Notes under the pieces: model-generated
Seen by the model: the letters and a program-made list of their open reading frames with translations, nothing else
What the model was told of the DNA's origin: nothing
Database searches by the model: none
Assembly: GCA_004375715.1 (NCBI GenBank)
Contig: SOKP01000012.1
Coordinates: forward strand, 1 to 44,685
DNA: 44,685 bases
Reading direction: 5' to 3'
DNA from: Promethearchaeota archaeon
GTDB lineage: Archaea; Asgardarchaeota; Lokiarchaeia; Sigyniarchaeales; SOKP01
Translations under genes and position numbers: made by a program
Part shown: piece by piece, positions 6,388 through 14,082 of the stretch
Layout of the letters: each line of letters starts with the position of its first letter
How positions within the stretch are numbered: position 1 is the first letter of the stretch

Positions 6388-7911
6388 TTAAGTTGCAGCA
6401 ACTCTCTTAGGAAATTTGGATTGTGCCTTAAGGTTTTCCTGTAATAATTTATTTACAAGCTTAAATTTTTTATCTCGAAAGTCTTTTTTATCCCATAAAT
6501 TATTTAATTCATGAGGGTCGTTTTTGCGATCGTAAATATCGCCAAAATTATCTAACCCTTCGTAAACAGTTAGCTTATAATCTTCAGTAATTAAATGCCT
6601 TATCCGAGCGTCTAGAGGACCGACCTCTTCGTCGTTCTCTATTAAAACGCAATCTCGTAATTTCTTTGCTGGATTTTCTAAGACTTGTGACATGTCAAAA
6701 CCTTGCATATAAGGTGGGTGGTGTCGCTCTTTTACATTTAAAAGGTTAAGAATCGTTTTAGGAAGATCGATAGTACTAACTAAAGATTGAGACACTCCTG
6801 ACTTTGTTAATCCGGGGACTTTCCAAATTAAAGGGATGTGACAAGGTCCTACGAAAGGACATGGCCCTTTGAATAATAGCCCATGATCGCCCATTAAATC
6901 GCCGTGATCACTGGTAAAAATTACCATTGTATTTTCTGAATACCCCAACTTTTCTAAAGTCGCTAGTATTTTACCTACGCTATAATCTACGTACGCAATA
7001 GCTGCGTATGTTAAAGCGGTAATCTTGCGAACTTCCTCTTCCGTAGATTCTCGTAAGAAAGCTTTTTTAAAGGGCGGATTTTTTAAATGATATCCTAAAT
7101 ATTCATGGTGATATAAATTCTTAGCATCTTGAAAACTTGCGGGGAGTTCTATATCTTCTGGTTTATACAAGTCTTGAAATCTTTTAGGCGGATATAGAGG
7201 ATAATGTGGATCTGGAAAAGAACAATGCAAATAAAACGGTTTTTCTCCATATTCGCCCTTGGCATGTCTTTCGAGGAAAGCAATTGTTCGTTCTTGAACA
7301 TAGGTAGTGTTGTATAAATCTTCTGGTATTCCTTCGCAATATAAACTAAAAAGATTGTCGTAATTCTGAACTCTTTTTTTCATTTCCTCTGCAATTTTAG
7401 GGGCTCTTTCTTCCAACCATTCTGTATAATGGCCAGCGCACACAGTACCATTTCCTGAAATCACTTCCACTTCGTCGTAACCATAATAGGGGAGGGGAAA
7501 ATTCTTGCCTACAGGATCGTTTTTACCTTTATCTACCGCCCAACTAAACAAACTCTCGGCAGATTTCGTTTTTTGCTTAAAAGGGCCTAACCAAAATTGG
7601 TGGTGTATTTTTCCAATAGCAGCAGTATGCCACCCTCTCTTTCTAAGCGTTTTTGTAATGGTAGGGGTATTTTCGGGTAAATTAATTCCGTTGCTTCTAA
7701 CGCCATGCACATTTGGATATAATCCTGTGAGTAAAGTTGCTCTGTTAGGCATGCAAATTGGATTAGTACAATAATAATTAGTAAACCTCACACCCTCACT
7801 TGCTAACCTATCGAGGTTTGGAGTTTTTAGGATGGGATTTCCTGCACAGCCTAAATGATCGGCCCGTTGAGCGTCAGTAATAATAAATAAAACATTCATT
7901 TTTTCTTTCAT
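6388..7911 (-). CDS. Type I (Cys/formylglycine-dependent) sulfatase, paralog 2
   Basis: CMPNRATLLTG, GKIH, DPH, SDHGD. Collinear with 3808..5337 and shares its MKEKMNVLFII start. Confidence 0.93.
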   Translation of the reverse strand: MKEKMNVLFIITDAQRADHLGCAGNPILKTPNLDRLASEGVRFTNYYCTNPICMPNRATLLTGLYPNVHGVRSNGINLPENTPTITKTLRKRGWHTAAIGKIHHQFWLGPFKQKTKSAESLFSWAVDKGKNDPVGKNFPLPYYGYDEVEVISGNGTVCAGHYTEWLEERAPKIAEEMKKRVQNYDNLFSLYCEGIPEDLYNTTYVQERTIAFLERHAKGEYGEKPFYLHCSFPDPHYPLYPPKRFQDLYKPEDIELPASFQDAKNLYHHEYLGYHLKNPPFKKAFLRESTEEEVRKITALTYAAIAYVDYSVGKILATLEKLGYSENTMVIFTSDHGDLMGDHGLLFKGPCPFVGPCHIPLIWKVPGLTKSGVSQSLVSTIDLPKTILNLLNVKERHHPPYMQGFDMSQVLENPAKKLRDCVLIENDEEVGPLDARIRHLITEDYKLTVYEGLDNFGDIYDRKNDPHELNNLWDKKDFRDKKFKLVNKLLQENLKAQSKFPKRVAAT

Positions 7912-8037
7912 AATCCTAAAAAATCTAATCTTACTTGTTAGTTAAAATTAAAGTCTATTTTATGATTTCATTTTTGATGTTAGAAAATATAAAGGTTCAT
8001 GTAGATATTAGTACTTACACCAATAGCTTTTGGCAAG

Positions 8038-8046
8038 TTTTATAAG
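8038..8046 (+). promoter_or_regulatory. Candidate archaeal TATA box for the leu leader transcript
   Basis: TTTTATAAG about 50 nt upstream of the leader ATG (8095), fitting a transcription start near 8065-8072. The AT-rich background lowers specificity. Confidence 0.45.
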
Positions 8047-8094
8047 TGTCCTATAATTCACTTTTTAATACATAATTAAAGGGATTTAAAAGTA

Positions 8095-8193
8095 ATGCTG
8101 CTTCAAAAAACGACTAGAATTGAATCTAGGAATTCATTTAAGCAATTTTATCCCTTTTTATTATTATTAAATCTTCTCTTATTATTACTATAA
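8095..8193 (+). CDS. Leucine-rich leader peptide (LeuL-like uORF), 32 aa: MLLQKTTRIESRNSFKQFYPFLLLLNLLLLLL*
   Basis: Translated by hand: ATG 8095 to TAA 8191-8193. The last 11 codons are TTA TTA TTA TTA AAT CTT CTC TTA TTA TTA CTA. Purine-rich AAAGGGA lies upstream. Ends 90 nt before leuA on the same strand. Confidence 0.75.
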   Translation: MLLQKTTRIESRNSFKQFYPFLLLLNLLLLLL

Positions 8194-8251
8194 TACCCCT
8201 CTCTTCTATTAGAAGGAAGGAGATATCTTTCTCTTTAGGGGGGGTTGTATA
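8189..8251 (+). promoter_or_regulatory. Putative attenuator RNA with alternative stems between the leader stop and leuA
   Basis: ACCCCTCT (8195-8202) can pair with GGGGGGGT (8238-8245). GAAGGAAGGA (8212-8221) can pair with TCTTTCTCTTT (8226-8236). Alternatively, CTTCT (8203-8207) can pair with AGAAG (8211-8215). Confidence 0.6.
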
Positions 8252-8283
8252 AAAAACGATAAATTTAATATAGGTAAAGAAAA

Positions 8284-9903
8284 ATGGAAAAAAACAGTAA
8301 TGTAAGTGTTTCGCAAATAATGGGGGAAATAAGAGACTCACTTAGTCTTCCGGATAAAGCTTATTTTTTCGATACAACGCTTCGTGATGGTGAACAAACC
8401 CCCGGTATAAGTTTTACTCACAAAGAGAAAATATCTATTGCACAAACACTAAATGATATGAAAATTGATGTAATTGAAGCGGGATTTCCAGTTACTTCTA
8501 TAGGCGATTTTGAAGCGTGTAAATCCATAGCTAAATTAGGATTAGATTCTGAAGTGATGGGACTAGCGAGGATGGCAAAAATTGATATAGATAAAGTTAT
8601 TGAAGCGGATATGGATAGTATTCACCTTTTTATTGCTACATCAGATTTACATCTAAAATCAAAACTTCAAATGAGTCGCGATGAAGTAATAGAGCAAATT
8701 AATAAATATGTTTCTTATGCTAAAGAGCATTACTCGACAGTATTATTCTCAGCTGAAGATGCAACTCGTTCTGATTTGGATTTCTTAATTAAAGCAAATT
8801 TAAATGCAATTGAGAGCGGAGCAACGAGAATTAATATTCCTGATACTGTAGGTACCATCTCGCCAAAAGCGTTCGGATATATGGTAAATAATGTATATAA
8901 AGCAATTCCAAGTGACATTAGAATAGCAGTACACTGTCATAACGATTTTGGACTCGCCGTCGCAAACACTATTGCGGGATTCGAAAATGGAGCCTCGGAA
9001 GCACAAACTACAATTATGGGTTTAGGAGAACGAGCTGGCAATGCTTCCTTTGAAGAAACAGCAATGTCACTCTATGCTCTATATCAATTACCTATGAATA
9101 TCATCACGCAAAAAATATTTCCCACTGCGAAACTCATCGAAAGTTATTGTGGTGGTAAAGTTAGGATAGGACGCCTCCAACCTTTGATAGGGCAAAACGC
9201 ATTTGCTCACGAAGCAGGCATTCACGCCCATGCCATGATTAAAAACGCGCGAACCTACGAACCTATCACTCCTAAGTTAATTGGAATAAGTAGATCTGAC
9301 AGTGTAGTAGATATTCTTAAGGAATCAATTAAATTTGGGAAACACAGTGGTGGACATGCGTTAAAAGCAAAATTGGGAGATCTTGGAATTAATACGAATG
9401 ATAAAGAATTCGTTAAAATAATGAATCACATTAAAGATTTTGGAGACAAAGGACATGAGGTTTCTGAAGAAGATTTTTTAGCAATTGTTAAGGATGTTAT
9501 GGGAGAAATACCCGAAGAAGAACAATACGTCATTCTTGAAGAATTAACGGTTTTGACTGGTTCCATAACTCCTACATCAACTGTGCGTTTAAAAATAAGA
9601 AATGGAGATTTCGTAGAAAAAGTCGCTTCCTCAATAGGAGTTGGTCCAGTAGATGCGTCAGTCAATGCTATTGTTAAATGTTTTAAACCCATGAGTAACA
9701 TTAAGCTTTTAAACTTCCAAATTGACGCGATTACTGGAGGAACTGAAGCATTAGGACATGTGGTTATCGAAATTTTGGACATTGAAAGTAATCTCATAGT
9801 TAAAGCAAGTGCTACTCATGAAGATATTGTAATGTGCTCGGTTTTAGCTCTTGTAAAAGGTTTGAATCTTATAGTTAAGAAAAAAAATGCTGAAATGAAA
9901 TGA
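8284..9903 (+). CDS. leuA: 2-isopropylmalate synthase (LeuA/CimA family)
   Basis: DTTLRDGEQTPG, EAGFP, PDTVG, HCHND, GLGERAGN, HEAGIH and a C-terminal allosteric domain (GVGPVDA). Followed by leuC and leuD. Citramalate synthase cannot be excluded from motifs, but the Leu-rich leader favours LeuA. Confidence 0.85.
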   Translation: MEKNSNVSVSQIMGEIRDSLSLPDKAYFFDTTLRDGEQTPGISFTHKEKISIAQTLNDMKIDVIEAGFPVTSIGDFEACKSIAKLGLDSEVMGLARMAKIDIDKVIEADMDSIHLFIATSDLHLKSKLQMSRDEVIEQINKYVSYAKEHYSTVLFSAEDATRSDLDFLIKANLNAIESGATRINIPDTVGTISPKAFGYMVNNVYKAIPSDIRIAVHCHNDFGLAVANTIAGFENGASEAQTTIMGLGERAGNASFEETAMSLYALYQLPMNIITQKIFPTAKLIESYCGGKVRIGRLQPLIGQNAFAHEAGIHAHAMIKNARTYEPITPKLIGISRSDSVVDILKESIKFGKHSGGHALKAKLGDLGINTNDKEFVKIMNHIKDFGDKGHEVSEEDFLAIVKDVMGEIPEEEQYVILEELTVLTGSITPTSTVRLKIRNGDFVEKVASSIGVGPVDASVNAIVKCFKPMSNIKLLNFQIDAITGGTEALGHVVIEILDIESNLIVKASATHEDIVMCSVLALVKGLNLIVKKKNAEMK

Positions 9904-9935
9904 ATACCTTTTAAAAAAATCGAATGATGTAAATT

Positions 9936-11210
9936 ATGGGTTTAACAATTACTGAGAAAATTCTTAGAGATCATTGCCAAAATAAAAAAGCCATTGCTGG
10001 TGATTTTATTATGGCCGATATCGATAAATGTTTGGCTAACGATATTACTGCTCCCATAGCCATAGACGTATTTAAAAAAGTGACAGAAGATTCTAAAGCT
10101 GAAGTTTTTGATTCTTCTAGAATCATTCTAATCCCTGACCATTTTACTCCAAATAAGGACGTGGCCTCTGCTGCTCAGTGTAAAATCCTTAGAGACTTTG
10201 CTACTAGACATAATATTACTAACTATTTTGAGGTTGGAAGAGGAGGCATTGAACATTGTCTTGTACCAGAACAAGGATTGGTGAAACCAGGAGACGTTTT
10301 TATTGGGGCTGATTCACATACATGCACTTATGGTGCACTTGGGGCGTTTGCAACAGGAGTTGGATCTACAGATTTAGGTGTAGCAATGGCGTTAGGAAAA
10401 TGTTGGCTTAAAATCCCAGAATCTATTAAGTTCATTTATTCTGGTGGATTAAATGAATGGGTTTCTGGAAAAGACTTGATATTATATACAATAGGGGAGA
10501 TTGGCGTAGATGGAGCCACATACAAAGCTATGGAATTTACAGGTGATTCAATAAAAAGTTTACCTATAGAAGATCGGTTTACTATGTGTAATATGGCTAT
10601 AGAAGCTGGCGGAAAAAGTGGAATCATTGAACCTGATACTATAACCAGATCATATTTAGATTCTGTTAAGATATCAAATGATAGTTTTTATAGTAGTGAT
10701 AAAGATGCTGAATATTGTGATATTATAGATTTTGAATGTGCTAATATAGAACCACAGATTGCCCTTCCTCATTCACCTGATAACGTGAAATCCATTTCAG
10801 AAGTGCACGGTATGAAAATAGAATTAGATCAAGTAGTCATAGGATCGTGTACAAATGGCCGGCTTACCGATTTAAGAAATGCTGCGAAAATTCTTAAAAA
10901 TCGTAAAATCAATAAAAAACTAAGATGCATAATAATACCAGGAACGCAAAATATATATCTAAAAGCGATGGAAAGAGGATATATTGAGAGTTTTGTTAAT
11001 GCTGGTGCAATAGTATCAACTCCTACCTGTGGACCGTGTTTAGGTGGTCATATGGGCGTCTTAGCGGAGGGAGAGAAAGCGTTATCCACAACTAATAGAA
11101 ACTTCCAAGGGAGAATGGGGCATGTTAATAGCGAGGTTTTTTTGTCCAGCCCTGCAGTTGCAGCTGCTTCAGCGATAAAAGGGTATATAACCTCCCCAGA
11201 AAATTTATAA
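9936..11210 (+). CDS. leuC: 3-isopropylmalate dehydratase large subunit
   Basis: GADSHTCT, IGSCTNGR, CGPCLGGH and STTNRNF aconitase-family motifs; short archaeal/Firmicutes-type length. Confidence 0.92.
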   Translation: MGLTITEKILRDHCQNKKAIAGDFIMADIDKCLANDITAPIAIDVFKKVTEDSKAEVFDSSRIILIPDHFTPNKDVASAAQCKILRDFATRHNITNYFEVGRGGIEHCLVPEQGLVKPGDVFIGADSHTCTYGALGAFATGVGSTDLGVAMALGKCWLKIPESIKFIYSGGLNEWVSGKDLILYTIGEIGVDGATYKAMEFTGDSIKSLPIEDRFTMCNMAIEAGGKSGIIEPDTITRSYLDSVKISNDSFYSSDKDAEYCDIIDFECANIEPQIALPHSPDNVKSISEVHGMKIELDQVVIGSCTNGRLTDLRNAAKILKNRKINKKLRCIIIPGTQNIYLKAMERGYIESFVNAGAIVSTPTCGPCLGGHMGVLAEGEKALSTTNRNFQGRMGHVNSEVFLSSPAVAAASAIKGYITSPENL

Positions 11211-11218
11211 GAAAAAGT

Positions 11219-11722
11219 GTGAGATTGCCAATGATTGGAAAAGTAATTAAGTATAATCTAAAAAATATTAATACTGATCTAATAATTCCTGCTAGATATT
11301 TAATAAATTCAGATAAGAATTTTCTAGCACAGCACTGTATGGAGGATTTAGATCGCGAATTTATTAAAAAAGTTAGTGAATATAATTATTCTATCCTAGT
11401 TGCGAATTCAAATTTTGGTTGCGGATCAAGTAGGGAACAAGCTCCTTTAGCATTAAAAGCTAGTGGGATAAAATGCATTATCGCACCTTCATTTGCCAGG
11501 ATTTTTTTTAGAAATTCGATAAACATTGGCTTACAAATAGTAGAATTATCTAATATTGATGATATAAAAATTGGAGATGTGCTAGAGATCGATTTAAAAA
11601 TAGGGATAATTAATAATACAACTTCACTACACCATTATACAGTTAAAAAACAACCAGTTTTCCTCCAGGAAATAATTTCTGATGGTGGTTTAGTTAATTA
11701 TACTAAAAAAAGATTGATTTAA
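11219..11722 (+). CDS. leuD: 3-isopropylmalate dehydratase small subunit
   Basis: NINTDLIIPARYL, NFGCGSSREQA, SFARIFFRN. Start is GTG 11219 or ATG 11231. Confidence 0.92.
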   Translation: MRLPMIGKVIKYNLKNINTDLIIPARYLINSDKNFLAQHCMEDLDREFIKKVSEYNYSILVANSNFGCGSSREQAPLALKASGIKCIIAPSFARIFFRNSINIGLQIVELSNIDDIKIGDVLEIDLKIGIINNTTSLHHYTVKKQPVFLQEIISDGGLVNYTKKRLI

Positions 11723-11814: not shown

Positions 11815-14082
11815 TTAGGAGTGTGGATTGAAAACTCTTTTAATGATTAGTGAATACAGCGCCTCTATCTCCTTGGAATCAAAAGATTTCTCTCCAATTA
11901 ATTGAGTTACATAAAAATACTCTTGCCGAGTTTGTTTCATCTTAACAATTGCTTTATTAATTAAGGCTTTTTCTGTAGGAGCTATTTTCATATTACCAAC
12001 TCCGGTTAACTTAAGCGGGTATAAGAAGGCAGTACCTAGGTGTTTTCTCAGTAAATTTTCAATACCCTCAAATGGTTGGAGATTACCTTTGAATTCCTTC
12101 AAATAAGTTCCAAATTTCTCCTCCATCTCTAAGGACAAATCGTCAATTACTCCGTAAAACTGTGTAGAAGGTAAGTCTTTCATAATAAATATGAGTCTGA
12201 AATGTTTATAGTCTGACATTAAGATTTTTGAGTTTTGATATTCGAGTTTAACTGTTTGTGAGCGTTCTCCTGACCCTGATATATCAAATCCAAACGTGCG
12301 GATAGCTTCTAAAAATCCTGAAACTAGTGTAGAATTGAATTTTTTCCCCGTAAAAGCTTGATCATACACATTCAGTGAAGATTTCTTTTCTACAACAATT
12401 ACATAGTTTAAATTCAAGATATCCGTAAACTTATTGATAGTTTTTTGTTTTGTTGCGAGTTTTTTTCTTTTATTTTTCTTAGCTAGTATAATTGATGAGG
12501 CTGTTACTGCTGATCCTAATCCCGCTATAACTACTATACCAATCACTAAAGTCCAATCGAATGCAAATGGCAAAATTATTTTGAAAATTTGAGTTACTAC
12601 GCCCGCATCAGTACCGTTAAACCAATACACAAATGCTTTGTAATTTCCATCTAAAGCATTTGAAGGGATTGTATAAGTGAAACTATTTGATTCTGGAGGT
12701 ATTACTTTTACTTTTATACTACTATTAATTTGATCTTCAAATGTATCAGCTAAAAAAAAAGTATAATTTCCTTCGAAAACAGGATCGGCAATGAAAAATT
12801 TTAATTCTTGACCCGCATAAAATTCTGTTCGGTCAACAGTTAGACCTATTGAAACTTCAGTAGAACTAGCAGTTATTAACCAGCTTGCTCCTTCTGTAAT
12901 AGTTTCGTTTGGTATTATTACATAGTTGCTAATATAATCAATAAACACGTCTGATGTTACGTTTTCTCCACTTCTTTTAATAGATAAATTATACCAGCTT
13001 TTAGGGAAAGAAAATTCAACCGAATAATTATCACTATACCTAGTAATTTCAGGGTTAATAGCCCAACTATTAGCAATACCTTCTTGAATTACTACAGAAC
13101 TATCGGAGTTGAAAATATCTTCAAGGTGTAGATTATAAGATAAATTAAAAGATAATTCTACTGATAATTCATTGCTTATGGAGATTTGAAAGATTTCATT
13201 GTTTGGAGAATAATTTAAATTAGAGAGAGTTAAATTGCCTGTTCCTGAATCTATTCCATTAGTTATATTATAAGACATCCCGCCAATATTAGCAGTCATA
13301 TTGATGCTCTCGGGATCATAGGGTCTATCGACTTGCTGAATTATCTGATATAAAAATGGTTCTCCTTGAACACCAGCAGTCCAATCACCGAGACCGACAG
13401 TATATTCCGAAGTATATAAGTTTGGATAGGTAGGGCTTTCTTTATTATAAGCCCAGTAATATTTTGAATTTTCAAAAGCTTCTATCTCTGATCCATTAAG
13501 AACAAAGAAATATTGCCCTACAGAAAGCGAAATAGGGCTCGAAAAAGTCTGGGTATACCAGAGTTCCTCATTAGTCATATTCAACAATGCTGGCGTTCCG
13601 TATATAGTACTATTAGGAATATCATTTAAATTATCATATCCGTTAATTTGAAAGTGAATATATCCTGAAGGAACGATCCCAATAGAAAAACCATAAATTT
13701 TTACACCGTAAACGATCGTAGGTTCTGTAATATTAACTTGTACTCCCAAGGCTTCTGTTTTTTTATCTACAAACTTATCTGTTTCAGATTTATCAATATC
13801 GTCTTCAATCACTTTAACTTCTCTTCCTAATCTTATATCTGTAAAGTTTAGTTCGATGCCAGTGATATCCCATGTTGGAGACTGTATATTTATATTAATT
13901 GAATTATTACTTTCAATCGTTTCAATAGCCCTTGAAAACTCGTGCATAACAAAATCTGATGAAGCAGTTAAATAATCTCCATTACTTTGAGCGTTAACAT
14001 TATTTGGGCCTAAATTTAACCCTAGTAAAAAAACCAGCAATGTTATGTTAATAGTGATTAAAATTTTTGTTTTCCTCAACAT
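11815..14082 (-). CDS. Single-pass membrane protein with cytoplasmic longin-like domain; paralog of 97..2385
   Basis: 755 aa. Signal peptide; shared blocks IELNFTDI, INMTANI, YxAxVxWF..DAGV; TM WTLVIGIVVIAGLGSAVTASSIIL; tail LVSGFLEAIRTFG. Confidence 0.75.
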   Translation of the reverse strand: MLRKTKILITINITLLVFLLGLNLGPNNVNAQSNGDYLTASSDFVMHEFSRAIETIESNNSININIQSPTWDITGIELNFTDIRLGREVKVIEDDIDKSETDKFVDKKTEALGVQVNITEPTIVYGVKIYGFSIGIVPSGYIHFQINGYDNLNDIPNSTIYGTPALLNMTNEELWYTQTFSSPISLSVGQYFFVLNGSEIEAFENSKYYWAYNKESPTYPNLYTSEYTVGLGDWTAGVQGEPFLYQIIQQVDRPYDPESINMTANIGGMSYNITNGIDSGTGNLTLSNLNYSPNNEIFQISISNELSVELSFNLSYNLHLEDIFNSDSSVVIQEGIANSWAINPEITRYSDNYSVEFSFPKSWYNLSIKRSGENVTSDVFIDYISNYVIIPNETITEGASWLITASSTEVSIGLTVDRTEFYAGQELKFFIADPVFEGNYTFFLADTFEDQINSSIKVKVIPPESNSFTYTIPSNALDGNYKAFVYWFNGTDAGVVTQIFKIILPFAFDWTLVIGIVVIAGLGSAVTASSIILAKKNKRKKLATKQKTINKFTDILNLNYVIVVEKKSSLNVYDQAFTGKKFNSTLVSGFLEAIRTFGFDISGSGERSQTVKLEYQNSKILMSDYKHFRLIFIMKDLPSTQFYGVIDDLSLEMEEKFGTYLKEFKGNLQPFEGIENLLRKHLGTAFLYPLKLTGVGNMKIAPTEKALINKAIVKMKQTRQEYFYVTQLIGEKSFDSKEIEALYSLIIKRVFNPHS

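Follow-up and report, generated by a model that had tools for sequence, protein, structure and literature searches.

Leader-peptide attenuation is a textbook hallmark of bacteria, and it needs coupled transcription and translation together with hairpin-plus-U terminators. At the locus described here, a leucine-rich small open reading frame (ORF), with a hairpin located at its stop codon, precedes the leuACD genes of an archaeal genome, which raises the question of whether the position of a ribosome could set the folding of this hairpin, and of what such a hairpin may do where a terminator of the bacterial kind is missing.

The leuACD locus and its leucine leader

The sequence-only reading of the window, i.e., the whole analysed stretch of 44,685 nucleotides, had taken the host to be an archaeon, an assignment which is borne out by the 16S gene; this gene, located on a different contig, matches the archaeal model at 1352.7 bits and has the 3′ end ...GGATCACCTCCTA. 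The host genome has a G+C content of 32% and encodes an actin-family ORF (339 bits) as well as a profilin-like match of 24 bits (cut-off 25), the latter with 0 matches in 14 control genomes, and these two features would fit an Asgard-type lineage. A sigma-70 scan returned one promoter-like match, which is irrelevant for an archaeon. The features of the locus are the following:

8038–8045, + strand: TATA-like box TTTTATAA, read from the sequence; probable promoter of the leader-leuACD transcript
8063–8172, + strand: helix 1 (fold, covariation), in which the 5′ UTR, the SD-like AAAGGGAT of the leader (8078–8085) and its start codon are paired with downstream codons
8095–8193, + strand: leader ORF MLLQKTTRIESRNSFKQFYPFLLLLNLLLLLL (ORF translation), 32 codons, stop TAA at 8191–8193
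8173–8190, + strand: second Leu run, CTT CTC TTA TTA TTA CTA, which links helix 1 to the hairpin as a single strand
8189–8251, + strand: stop-adjacent Y-shaped hairpin (fold plus conservation/covariation), core 8195–8245
8252–8271, + strand: A-rich spacer from the hairpin to the leuA ribosome-binding site, read from the sequence
8272–8275, + strand: leuA Shine-Dalgarno (SD) core AGGT, 12 nt upstream of the ATG
8284–9903, + strand: leuA, 2-isopropylmalate synthase with LeuA allosteric domain (NF002085, 561.6 bits, cut-off 517)
9936–11210, + strand: leuC (Aconitase, 325.7 bits)
11219–11722, + strand: leuD (Aconitase_C, 71.5 bits)

At the TATA-like box, the block AAGTTTTATAAGTGT is retained in the same-genus loci L001–L007, while AGGT is found at −11 to −13 in leuA orthologs almost without exception and the spacer consists of 54% A and 28% U across relatives. 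In the whole genome (G000), 1506 ORFs have a length of 200 aa or more, and only 285 of them have an SD-like word 5–16 nt upstream of their first ATG. A look-up of RNA records for 7950–9950 returned none, and among four sequencing runs compared with the locus, the one possible RNA run matches only parts of the leuA coding region (8618–9366), with 90–95% likeness, and no part of the leader. A sulfatase-family gene (6388–7911, − strand) is divergent from the leader promoter region, and a 755-aa ORF at 11815–14082 (− strand), for which no Pfam match was obtained, is rich in N-x-S/T sites and has a membrane segment at its C-terminus.

Leucine accounts for 10 of the final 11 codons of the leader ORF. 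Among 430 Leu-dominated small ORFs situated upstream of long ORFs in the genome, the leuA leader has the highest Leu count (10 of the last 12 codons), and the second-richest of these small ORFs precedes leuS (8 of 12 codons). A genome-wide filter for a leader combined with a stop-adjacent hairpin returned 14 candidates, with more than six residues of one kind only in the leuA leader; the leuS leader and a Cys-rich leader, both described below, were recovered only when the hairpin filter was dropped.

A close leuA ortholog is present in 74 of the 154 genomes of the same taxonomic order. With a leader defined as a small ORF with at least six Leu among its last 14 codons, 63 of the 71 leuA upstream regions examined, representing 14 or more genera and two families, were found to carry a Leu-rich leader that ends 82–138 nt before the leuA ATG, and in nearly all relatives the Leu codons reach the stop. 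Of the eight other regions, one has its leader at a distance of 359 nt upstream, beyond an assembly gap, and another is truncated at a contig edge, while the leader is absent from the remaining six, i.e., four from two G+C-richer families and two from the second family.

A hairpin at the leader stop codon

The minimum-energy fold of positions 8185–8255 has an energy of −24.2 kcal/mol (RNAfold). The four alternating pyrimidine/purine tracts that had been described from the letters alone are all present:

8195–8207: tract 1, ACCCCTCTCTTCT
8211–8221: tract 2, AGAAGGAAGGA
8226–8236: tract 3, TCTTTCTCTTT
8237–8245: tract 4, AGGGGGGGT

The outer stem is formed by tracts 1a and 4 (8195–8202 with 8238–8245), and the two inner hairpins by tracts 1b and 2a (8203–8207 with 8211–8215) and by tracts 2b and 3 (8217–8223 with 8230–8236). 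The outermost four A-U pairs (8189–8192 with 8248–8251) include two bases of the stop codon, in agreement with the earlier description of a hairpin base that overlaps the leader stop. The absence of a bacterial U-tail, likewise noted earlier, was confirmed, as an A-run (8251–8256) follows directly 3′ of the hairpin, a terminator scan returned 0 sites, and among 63 relatives a U-run of at least four within 12 nt of the hairpin occurs in just eight (at least five in three of the 63). Furthermore, Rfam returned 0 matches at the gathering score, and at an E-value threshold the best E was 0.9, with Phe_leader reaching 15.3 bits against a cut-off of 55.

Against shuffled sequences the window hairpin stands out only modestly (z −2.46; 4 of the 200 are equally stable), because purine/pyrimidine tracts fold well anyway; the case for its reality comes from conservation and not from the single-sequence fold statistic. 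In 63 of 63 relatives, which are not mutually independent, the largest hairpin after the stop starts between −3 and +6 nt from the end of the stop codon. These hairpins are 40–67 nt in length, with a median z of −2.97 and a z below −2 in 46 of the 63, while their stem sequences diverge widely between genera. Covariation across orthologous leaders, which had been proposed as a check, was indeed observed: cognate arms pair at −12.0 kcal/mol as against −7.1 kcal/mol for arms swapped between relatives (0 of 2000 permutations), and when each of 39 sequence clusters is reduced to a single member, the corresponding values are −11.46 and −7.04 (0 of 5000).

A similar picture emerges from alignments. 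One iteration of a covariance model aligned 26 sequences, including that of the window, and in this alignment, which is structure-fitted and leans towards structure, 82.9% of the cells are paired compared to 72.2% in shuffles, changes on both sides are seen in 14 of 20 pairs (a number reached by 12 of 500 shuffles), and the covariation score is 0.391, compared to 0.213 when shuffled (0 of 500) and 0.09–0.21 with the partners slid. A MAFFT alignment of 13 sequences from one clade, which was not structure-fitted, gave 84.1% versus 79.0% paired (0 of 500). RNAalifold applied to MAFFT alignments of 62 and 32 sequences returned 0 pairs, because the 3′ arms are out of register in these; the alignment of a first covariance-model search (E up to 1), which drew opposite-strand matches, was left out. 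Taken together, the covariation of the arms and their conservation indicate that the hairpin is real and under selection.

The Y-shape of the window is not general, since outside its genus the hairpin is mostly a single straight long stem, i.e., the four-tract appearance is the local form, in one genus, of a conserved hairpin. The sequence-only reading had proposed mutually exclusive stems among the four tracts, and this is overstated: tract 2 does swap its partner when a ribosome is placed at the stop, but the nested fold dominates the free ensemble, in which tract 2 has one half bound to tract 1 and, simultaneously, the other to tract 3 (expected pairs in the window: 7.25 for 1:4, 6.92 for 2:3, 4.37 for 1:2 and 0.0 for 3:4). 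At −21.4, the nested fold is much more stable than the tandem alternative, whose two halves reach −8.1 and −4.2. Tandem folds of the 1:2 and 3:4 type, with both halves at −3 kcal/mol or better, are available to 21 of 62 relatives, which is no excess over 12 control genomic hairpins of similar energy ratio (all that could be found), and the tandem fold was rejected as a conserved alternative. In the window alone, the 1:2 pairing is no better than its composition predicts (z +0.6), while family-wide the 5′ arm pairs slightly better with the hairpin interior than with shuffled interiors (−5.47 versus −4.60), with a z below −1.64 in 13 of 62.

The accompanying claim that U-rich tract 3 is at times exposed did not hold, as its pairing with tract 2 persists whether the RNA is folded freely or with any of the four ribosome constraints. 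With a ribosome at the stop (positions 8173–8203 masked), the outer stem is lost and tract 2 pairs wholly with tract 3, which is therefore never exposed; the constrained folding that had been suggested as a check for two folds thus yielded a hairpin that is remodelled near the stop, yet has tract 3 paired in every state. Of the 63 relatives, 31 have a U-rich 8-mer within the 3′ half of their hairpin and six a U-run of at least five, so that neither a U-tail nor a masked U-tract was found as a conserved feature among these 63, and a search of the same relatives returned no conserved factor-binding motif. Given that tandem folds are found in 21 of 62 relatives, that tract 3 is always paired and that a U-rich tract occurs in 31 of 63, the conserved principle is the position of the hairpin at the stop codon and not a four-tract switch or a masked U-tract.

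Ribosome position, helix 1 and related leaders

What does stand of the earlier proposal is that ribosome position would govern whether tract 1 is free: the hairpin starts at the stop codon, and ribosome position therefore decides its folding. If the ribosome is taken to cover 15 nt to each side of the first base of the P site, the basal pairs are lost in 63 of 63 relatives once the stop occupies the A site. For the window, folds computed with the A site at 8161 or 8179 retain the hairpin, whereas those for position 8188 and for the stop show it remodelled. By this geometry, the base of the hairpin must open for a ribosome that has reached the final two Leu codons or the stop, and a ribosome on any earlier Leu codon (8 of 10) would leave the hairpin folded.

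Upstream of the hairpin, the 3′ strand of helix 1 is composed of ATCCCTTT (8150–8157), i.e., the codons before the first Leu run, and of four TTA codons (8158–8169). The predicted duplex has an energy of −22.6 kcal/mol in the window, and across 62 relatives cognate strands pair at −21.15 versus −14.89 for swapped strands (0 of 2000 permutations). The last six Leu codons of the leader (8173–8190) are the sole unpaired stretch between the two conserved helices, which leave little single-stranded RNA in a leader of approximately 190 nt. Once transcribed, helix 1 would shut the ribosome-binding site of the leader, and sensing is therefore probably a single event, performed by the first ribosome behind RNA polymerase.

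Two further leaders of the same genome are relevant to this arrangement:

L089:306–413, + strand (G000:C275): leuS leader ORF ending in ...KKVLLQSLLLLLL, upstream of leuS (L089:565–3453)
L090:1179–1250, − strand (G000:C34): Cys-rich leader ORF MRIKYQYKVRTLTSCCCSICCCC, upstream of L090:71–1093 (− strand)

The leuS product is a 963-aa archaeal-type leucine-tRNA ligase (TIGR00395, 922.7 bits, cut-off 648.5), and its leader (...LLAVLLLLL) is kept in 27 of 29 related loci. The leuS helix designated A:C starts at the last base of the stop codon and its strands are matched to each other (−16.05 versus −13.09; 0 of 3000). The alternatives to it also co-vary, i.e., A:E (1 of 3000) and B:D (2 of 3000), with B located within the A:C loop, while none of three control pairings was significant. 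Covariation of all three pairings indicates that the leuS leader has competing folds, A:C as opposed to A:E and B:D. Between the 3′ limit of the conserved RNA and the start codon there are tens of nucleotides, and their number varies, which speaks against masking of the ribosome-binding site for leuS. Of the 135 genomes of the family, 73 encode the type of LeuRS that comes with a leader, and nearly all of these belong to two genera; four of those genomes each contain a weaker match of just 37–39% identity.

The Cys-rich leader is followed by the gene for a PLP enzyme resembling cysteine synthase; its cysKM score of 273 bits falls short of the cut-off of 344. Its leader (...CCCSICCCC) is kept in 8 of 10 related loci, and in it the final Cys codons pair with ACAACAG just past the stop, followed by a second conserved hairpin downstream. 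A small ORF ending in ...VNHHHHHPVLQ (G000:C109:25516–25596, + strand) lies 110 nt upstream of a doubtful 120-aa ORF; no histidine gene was identified adjoining it.

A proposed role for the hairpin and its relation to known systems

It is likely that the hairpin serves as a ribosome-gated helix of a leucine sensor. The fuller statement, according to which it is the ribosome-gated downstream helix of a leucine-sensing leader before leuACD, acting co-transcriptionally, without an intrinsic terminator and in a protective manner, is put forward tentatively, at close to an even chance. Under this proposal, when leucine is scarce the ribosome would lag, the hairpin would fold behind the polymerase and the transcript would run on into leuA, while under plentiful leucine the ribosome would arrive at the stop early enough to prevent hairpin formation. 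Left without this protection, the transcript would end prematurely or be cut, probably through a factor such as aCPSF1/FttA and not at a hairpin-plus-U terminator, and the hairpin would act as an anti-terminator instead of a terminator. The candidate termination factor in archaea is aCPSF1/FttA (PMC11616081, PMC7515710), and the genome contains a 638-aa Beta-CASP ORF that is aCPSF1-like.

That the hairpin would be protective and not inhibitory is deduced only from regulatory logic and codon geometry: if leuA and leuS are to be raised by starvation, the folded stop-adjacent helix would have to be the permissive state, and in leuS this folded helix would exclude the alternative long fold. Both the direction (folded being permissive) and the output of the hairpin are thus suggested with reserve, doubt somewhat outweighing confidence. 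The hairpin should refold after the ribosome leaves, no kinetic trap being predicted in the window, and the decision would therefore fall within the dwell of the ribosome at the stop; moreover, the Leu codons abut the stop, so that stalls on the last two would mimic the leucine-plentiful state. Archaeal polymerases are not known to respond to nascent hairpins.

Translational control of leuA had been named as the alternative in the sequence-only reading. In such a scheme, the pyrimidine-rich Leu-codon tail would pair with the purine-rich leuA ribosome-binding site, the hairpin would act as a clamp and a stalled ribosome would free the site. The minimum-energy fold indeed pairs 8171–8192 with the leuA SD region, with a probability of 0.72 for the pairing of SD and tail in the window and of at least 0.5 in 22 of 59 relatives, and with a stalled ribosome more of the ribosome-binding site is predicted to be unpaired (a fraction of 0.83 instead of 0.44 in the window, and of 0.63 instead of 0.51 on average in the family). 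The composition of the hairpin arms, of which the 5′ arm is 76% and the 3′ arm 29% pyrimidine, fits a long pyrimidine strand opposite a long purine strand, and a precedent is available in the base stem proposed for the actinobacterial LEU element (PMC1262725). However, dinucleotide-shuffled tails pair equally well (0.576 versus 0.556, p 0.25), and no specific contact between Leu tail and SD was found over what base composition gives. The leuA SD is also of ordinary accessibility (0.32, where the SD-like motifs of 284 control genes average 0.37; the window ranks at the 48th percentile) and hence not unusually masked, and a pseudoknot between the hairpin interior and the ribosome-binding site was rejected (mean z +0.11, below −1.64 in 3 of 63). 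In addition, helix 1 over the ribosome-binding site of the leader fits one-shot co-transcriptional sensing better than repeated sensing on mature mRNA, and the conserved RNA of the sister leuS element stops well before the start codon. With shuffled tails, SD accessibility and interior complementarity all null, translational attenuation is physically possible, but it is without specific support and appears unlikely.

A second alternative is that the hairpin is a constitutive stabiliser of the long untranslated leader, be it against 5′-3′ decay, factor loading or the sliding of ribosomes after termination, with leucine being sensed otherwise, if at all. This would agree with the scarcity of single-stranded RNA that the two helices leave in the leader, and with the fact that no fold test revealed a specific output. 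Nevertheless, although the stems have diverged, the 5′ end of the hairpin lies no further than 9 nt from the stop in any of the 63 relatives, and the leuS leader has the same placement; a mere stabiliser would not need to be pinned to the stop in this way, and this account is improbable.

Thirdly, the hairpin might be inhibitory, acting as a pause, a roadblock or in a terminator-like manner, with a ribosome stalled on the last Leu codons blocking its 5′ arm. In the pyrBI and pyrE attenuators, the ribosome prevents a hairpin by occupying the 5′ arm. The extension of the Leu codons up to the stop would suit such a role, as would the presence of TTTTGTAT directly 3′ of the stem in same-genus relatives, and in leuS the longest, 3′-most fold (A:E plus B:D) would then be the negative one. 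However, a ribosome touches the core stem only once its A site has come to one of the final two Leu codons; since the hairpin persists during stalls at any of the eight codons before these, an inhibitory hairpin would shut leuA off in starvation. A U-tail of at least four is, moreover, absent in 55 of the 63 relatives, and we regard an inhibitory role as highly unlikely. Least probable of all is a switch between 1:2 plus 3:4 and 1:4 plus 2:3 by which the ribosome sets the exposure of tract 3 to aCPSF1/FttA: the partner swap of tract 2, the slightly better than shuffled interior partner of the 5′ arm and the action of aCPSF1 with U-tracts (PMC8716108) speak for it, while the permanently paired tract 3, the composition-level 1:2 pairing, the control hairpins, the patchy U-rich tract and the predominance of a straight stem beyond this genus speak against it.

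The preferred reading, that of a protective, ribosome-gated helix, may be widened to a general proposal, namely that Asgard-type archaea use true transcription attenuation in which a pioneer ribosome gates a stop-adjacent anti-terminator hairpin and aCPSF1/FttA terminates, with leuA and leuS as examples and other forms for cysteine and further amino acids; in this generality the proposal is speculative and rather doubtful.

The archaeal leader is related in its logic to the classical transcription attenuators that employ a leader peptide, i.e., the leu, his, trp, thr and pheST leaders, represented in Rfam by Leu_leader and relatives. In both cases, a short ORF (whose translation is predicted here) with codons for the cognate amino acid is located directly upstream of a biosynthetic operon and of the gene for the cognate tRNA ligase, the helices are placed where the footprint of the ribosome decides their fate, and a helix shuts off the leader's own ribosome-binding site. 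The differences lie in the archaeal host, in the lack of a GC hairpin plus U-run and of any Rfam match, and in the absence of a clear antiterminator/terminator pair before leuA, although the leuS helices do compete. Furthermore, unlike a classical terminator, the stop-adjacent hairpin would here fold in starvation.

Among bacterial systems, tnaC and mgtL exemplify Rho-dependent control by a leader peptide. As in these, the position of the ribosome on the leader ORF would set the structure or masking of stop-proximal RNA, with no need of an intrinsic terminator; archaea are not known to possess Rho, and the candidate factor would instead be aCPSF1/FttA, for which the genome has the aCPSF1-like Beta-CASP ORF. 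In translational attenuation of the erm/cat type, the ribosome-binding site of the regulated gene is situated in the 3′ arm of the hairpin that is melted. A ribosome stalled in the leader would melt an adjoining hairpin in the present case too, whereas the leuA SD (8272–8275) lies 27 nt beyond the end of the core stem (8245) and is not specially masked.

The nearest published architecture is the actinobacterial LEU element (Seliverstov et al. 2005, PMC1262725), in which a Leu-codon leader ORF likewise precedes leuA; its structure is compact, an obvious terminator is lacking, and the Leu codons may form a base stem with the leuA SD. The conserved pseudoknot of that element was not found here (the mean z of +0.11 cited above), and a base stem of the LEU type would correspond to the pairing with a probability of 0.72 in the window that shuffled tails equal. 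The LEU element has no sequence relation to the present leader, and its host belongs to another domain of life.

Full-text literature searches returned no report of leader-peptide attenuation in archaea, and a bacteria-style amino-acid gauge of this kind appears to be not yet described for them. Here, the sensor half of such a gauge is strongly conserved in the archaeal lineage closest to eukaryotes, with covarying helices that are positioned to the nucleotide relative to the ribosome footprint, while the bacterial terminator is missing. If the leader acts co-transcriptionally, it would provide a mutable test case for ribosome-polymerase coupling as a means of archaeal regulation, and for how factor-dependent termination by aCPSF1/FttA reads RNA structure. 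True transcription attenuation with aCPSF1/FttA would represent an archaeal counterpart of Rho-dependent leader-peptide control, and action on translation or RNA stability would make it an archaeal control of the uORF type, paralleling eukaryotic uORFs.

Two variants of the locus were observed. At L009 (G039:C95), the Leu leader and hairpin are 359 nt from leuA, and the interval contains a run of N and an apparent second partial copy of the leuA 5′ end, so that this arrangement probably reflects an assembly problem or a local duplication. In a close strain (DNA run, contigs of X2), a 3-base deletion in the TTA run at 8159 removes one Leu codon in frame, and a few substitutions are found in the hairpin loop and the spacer (8229, 8257–8260).
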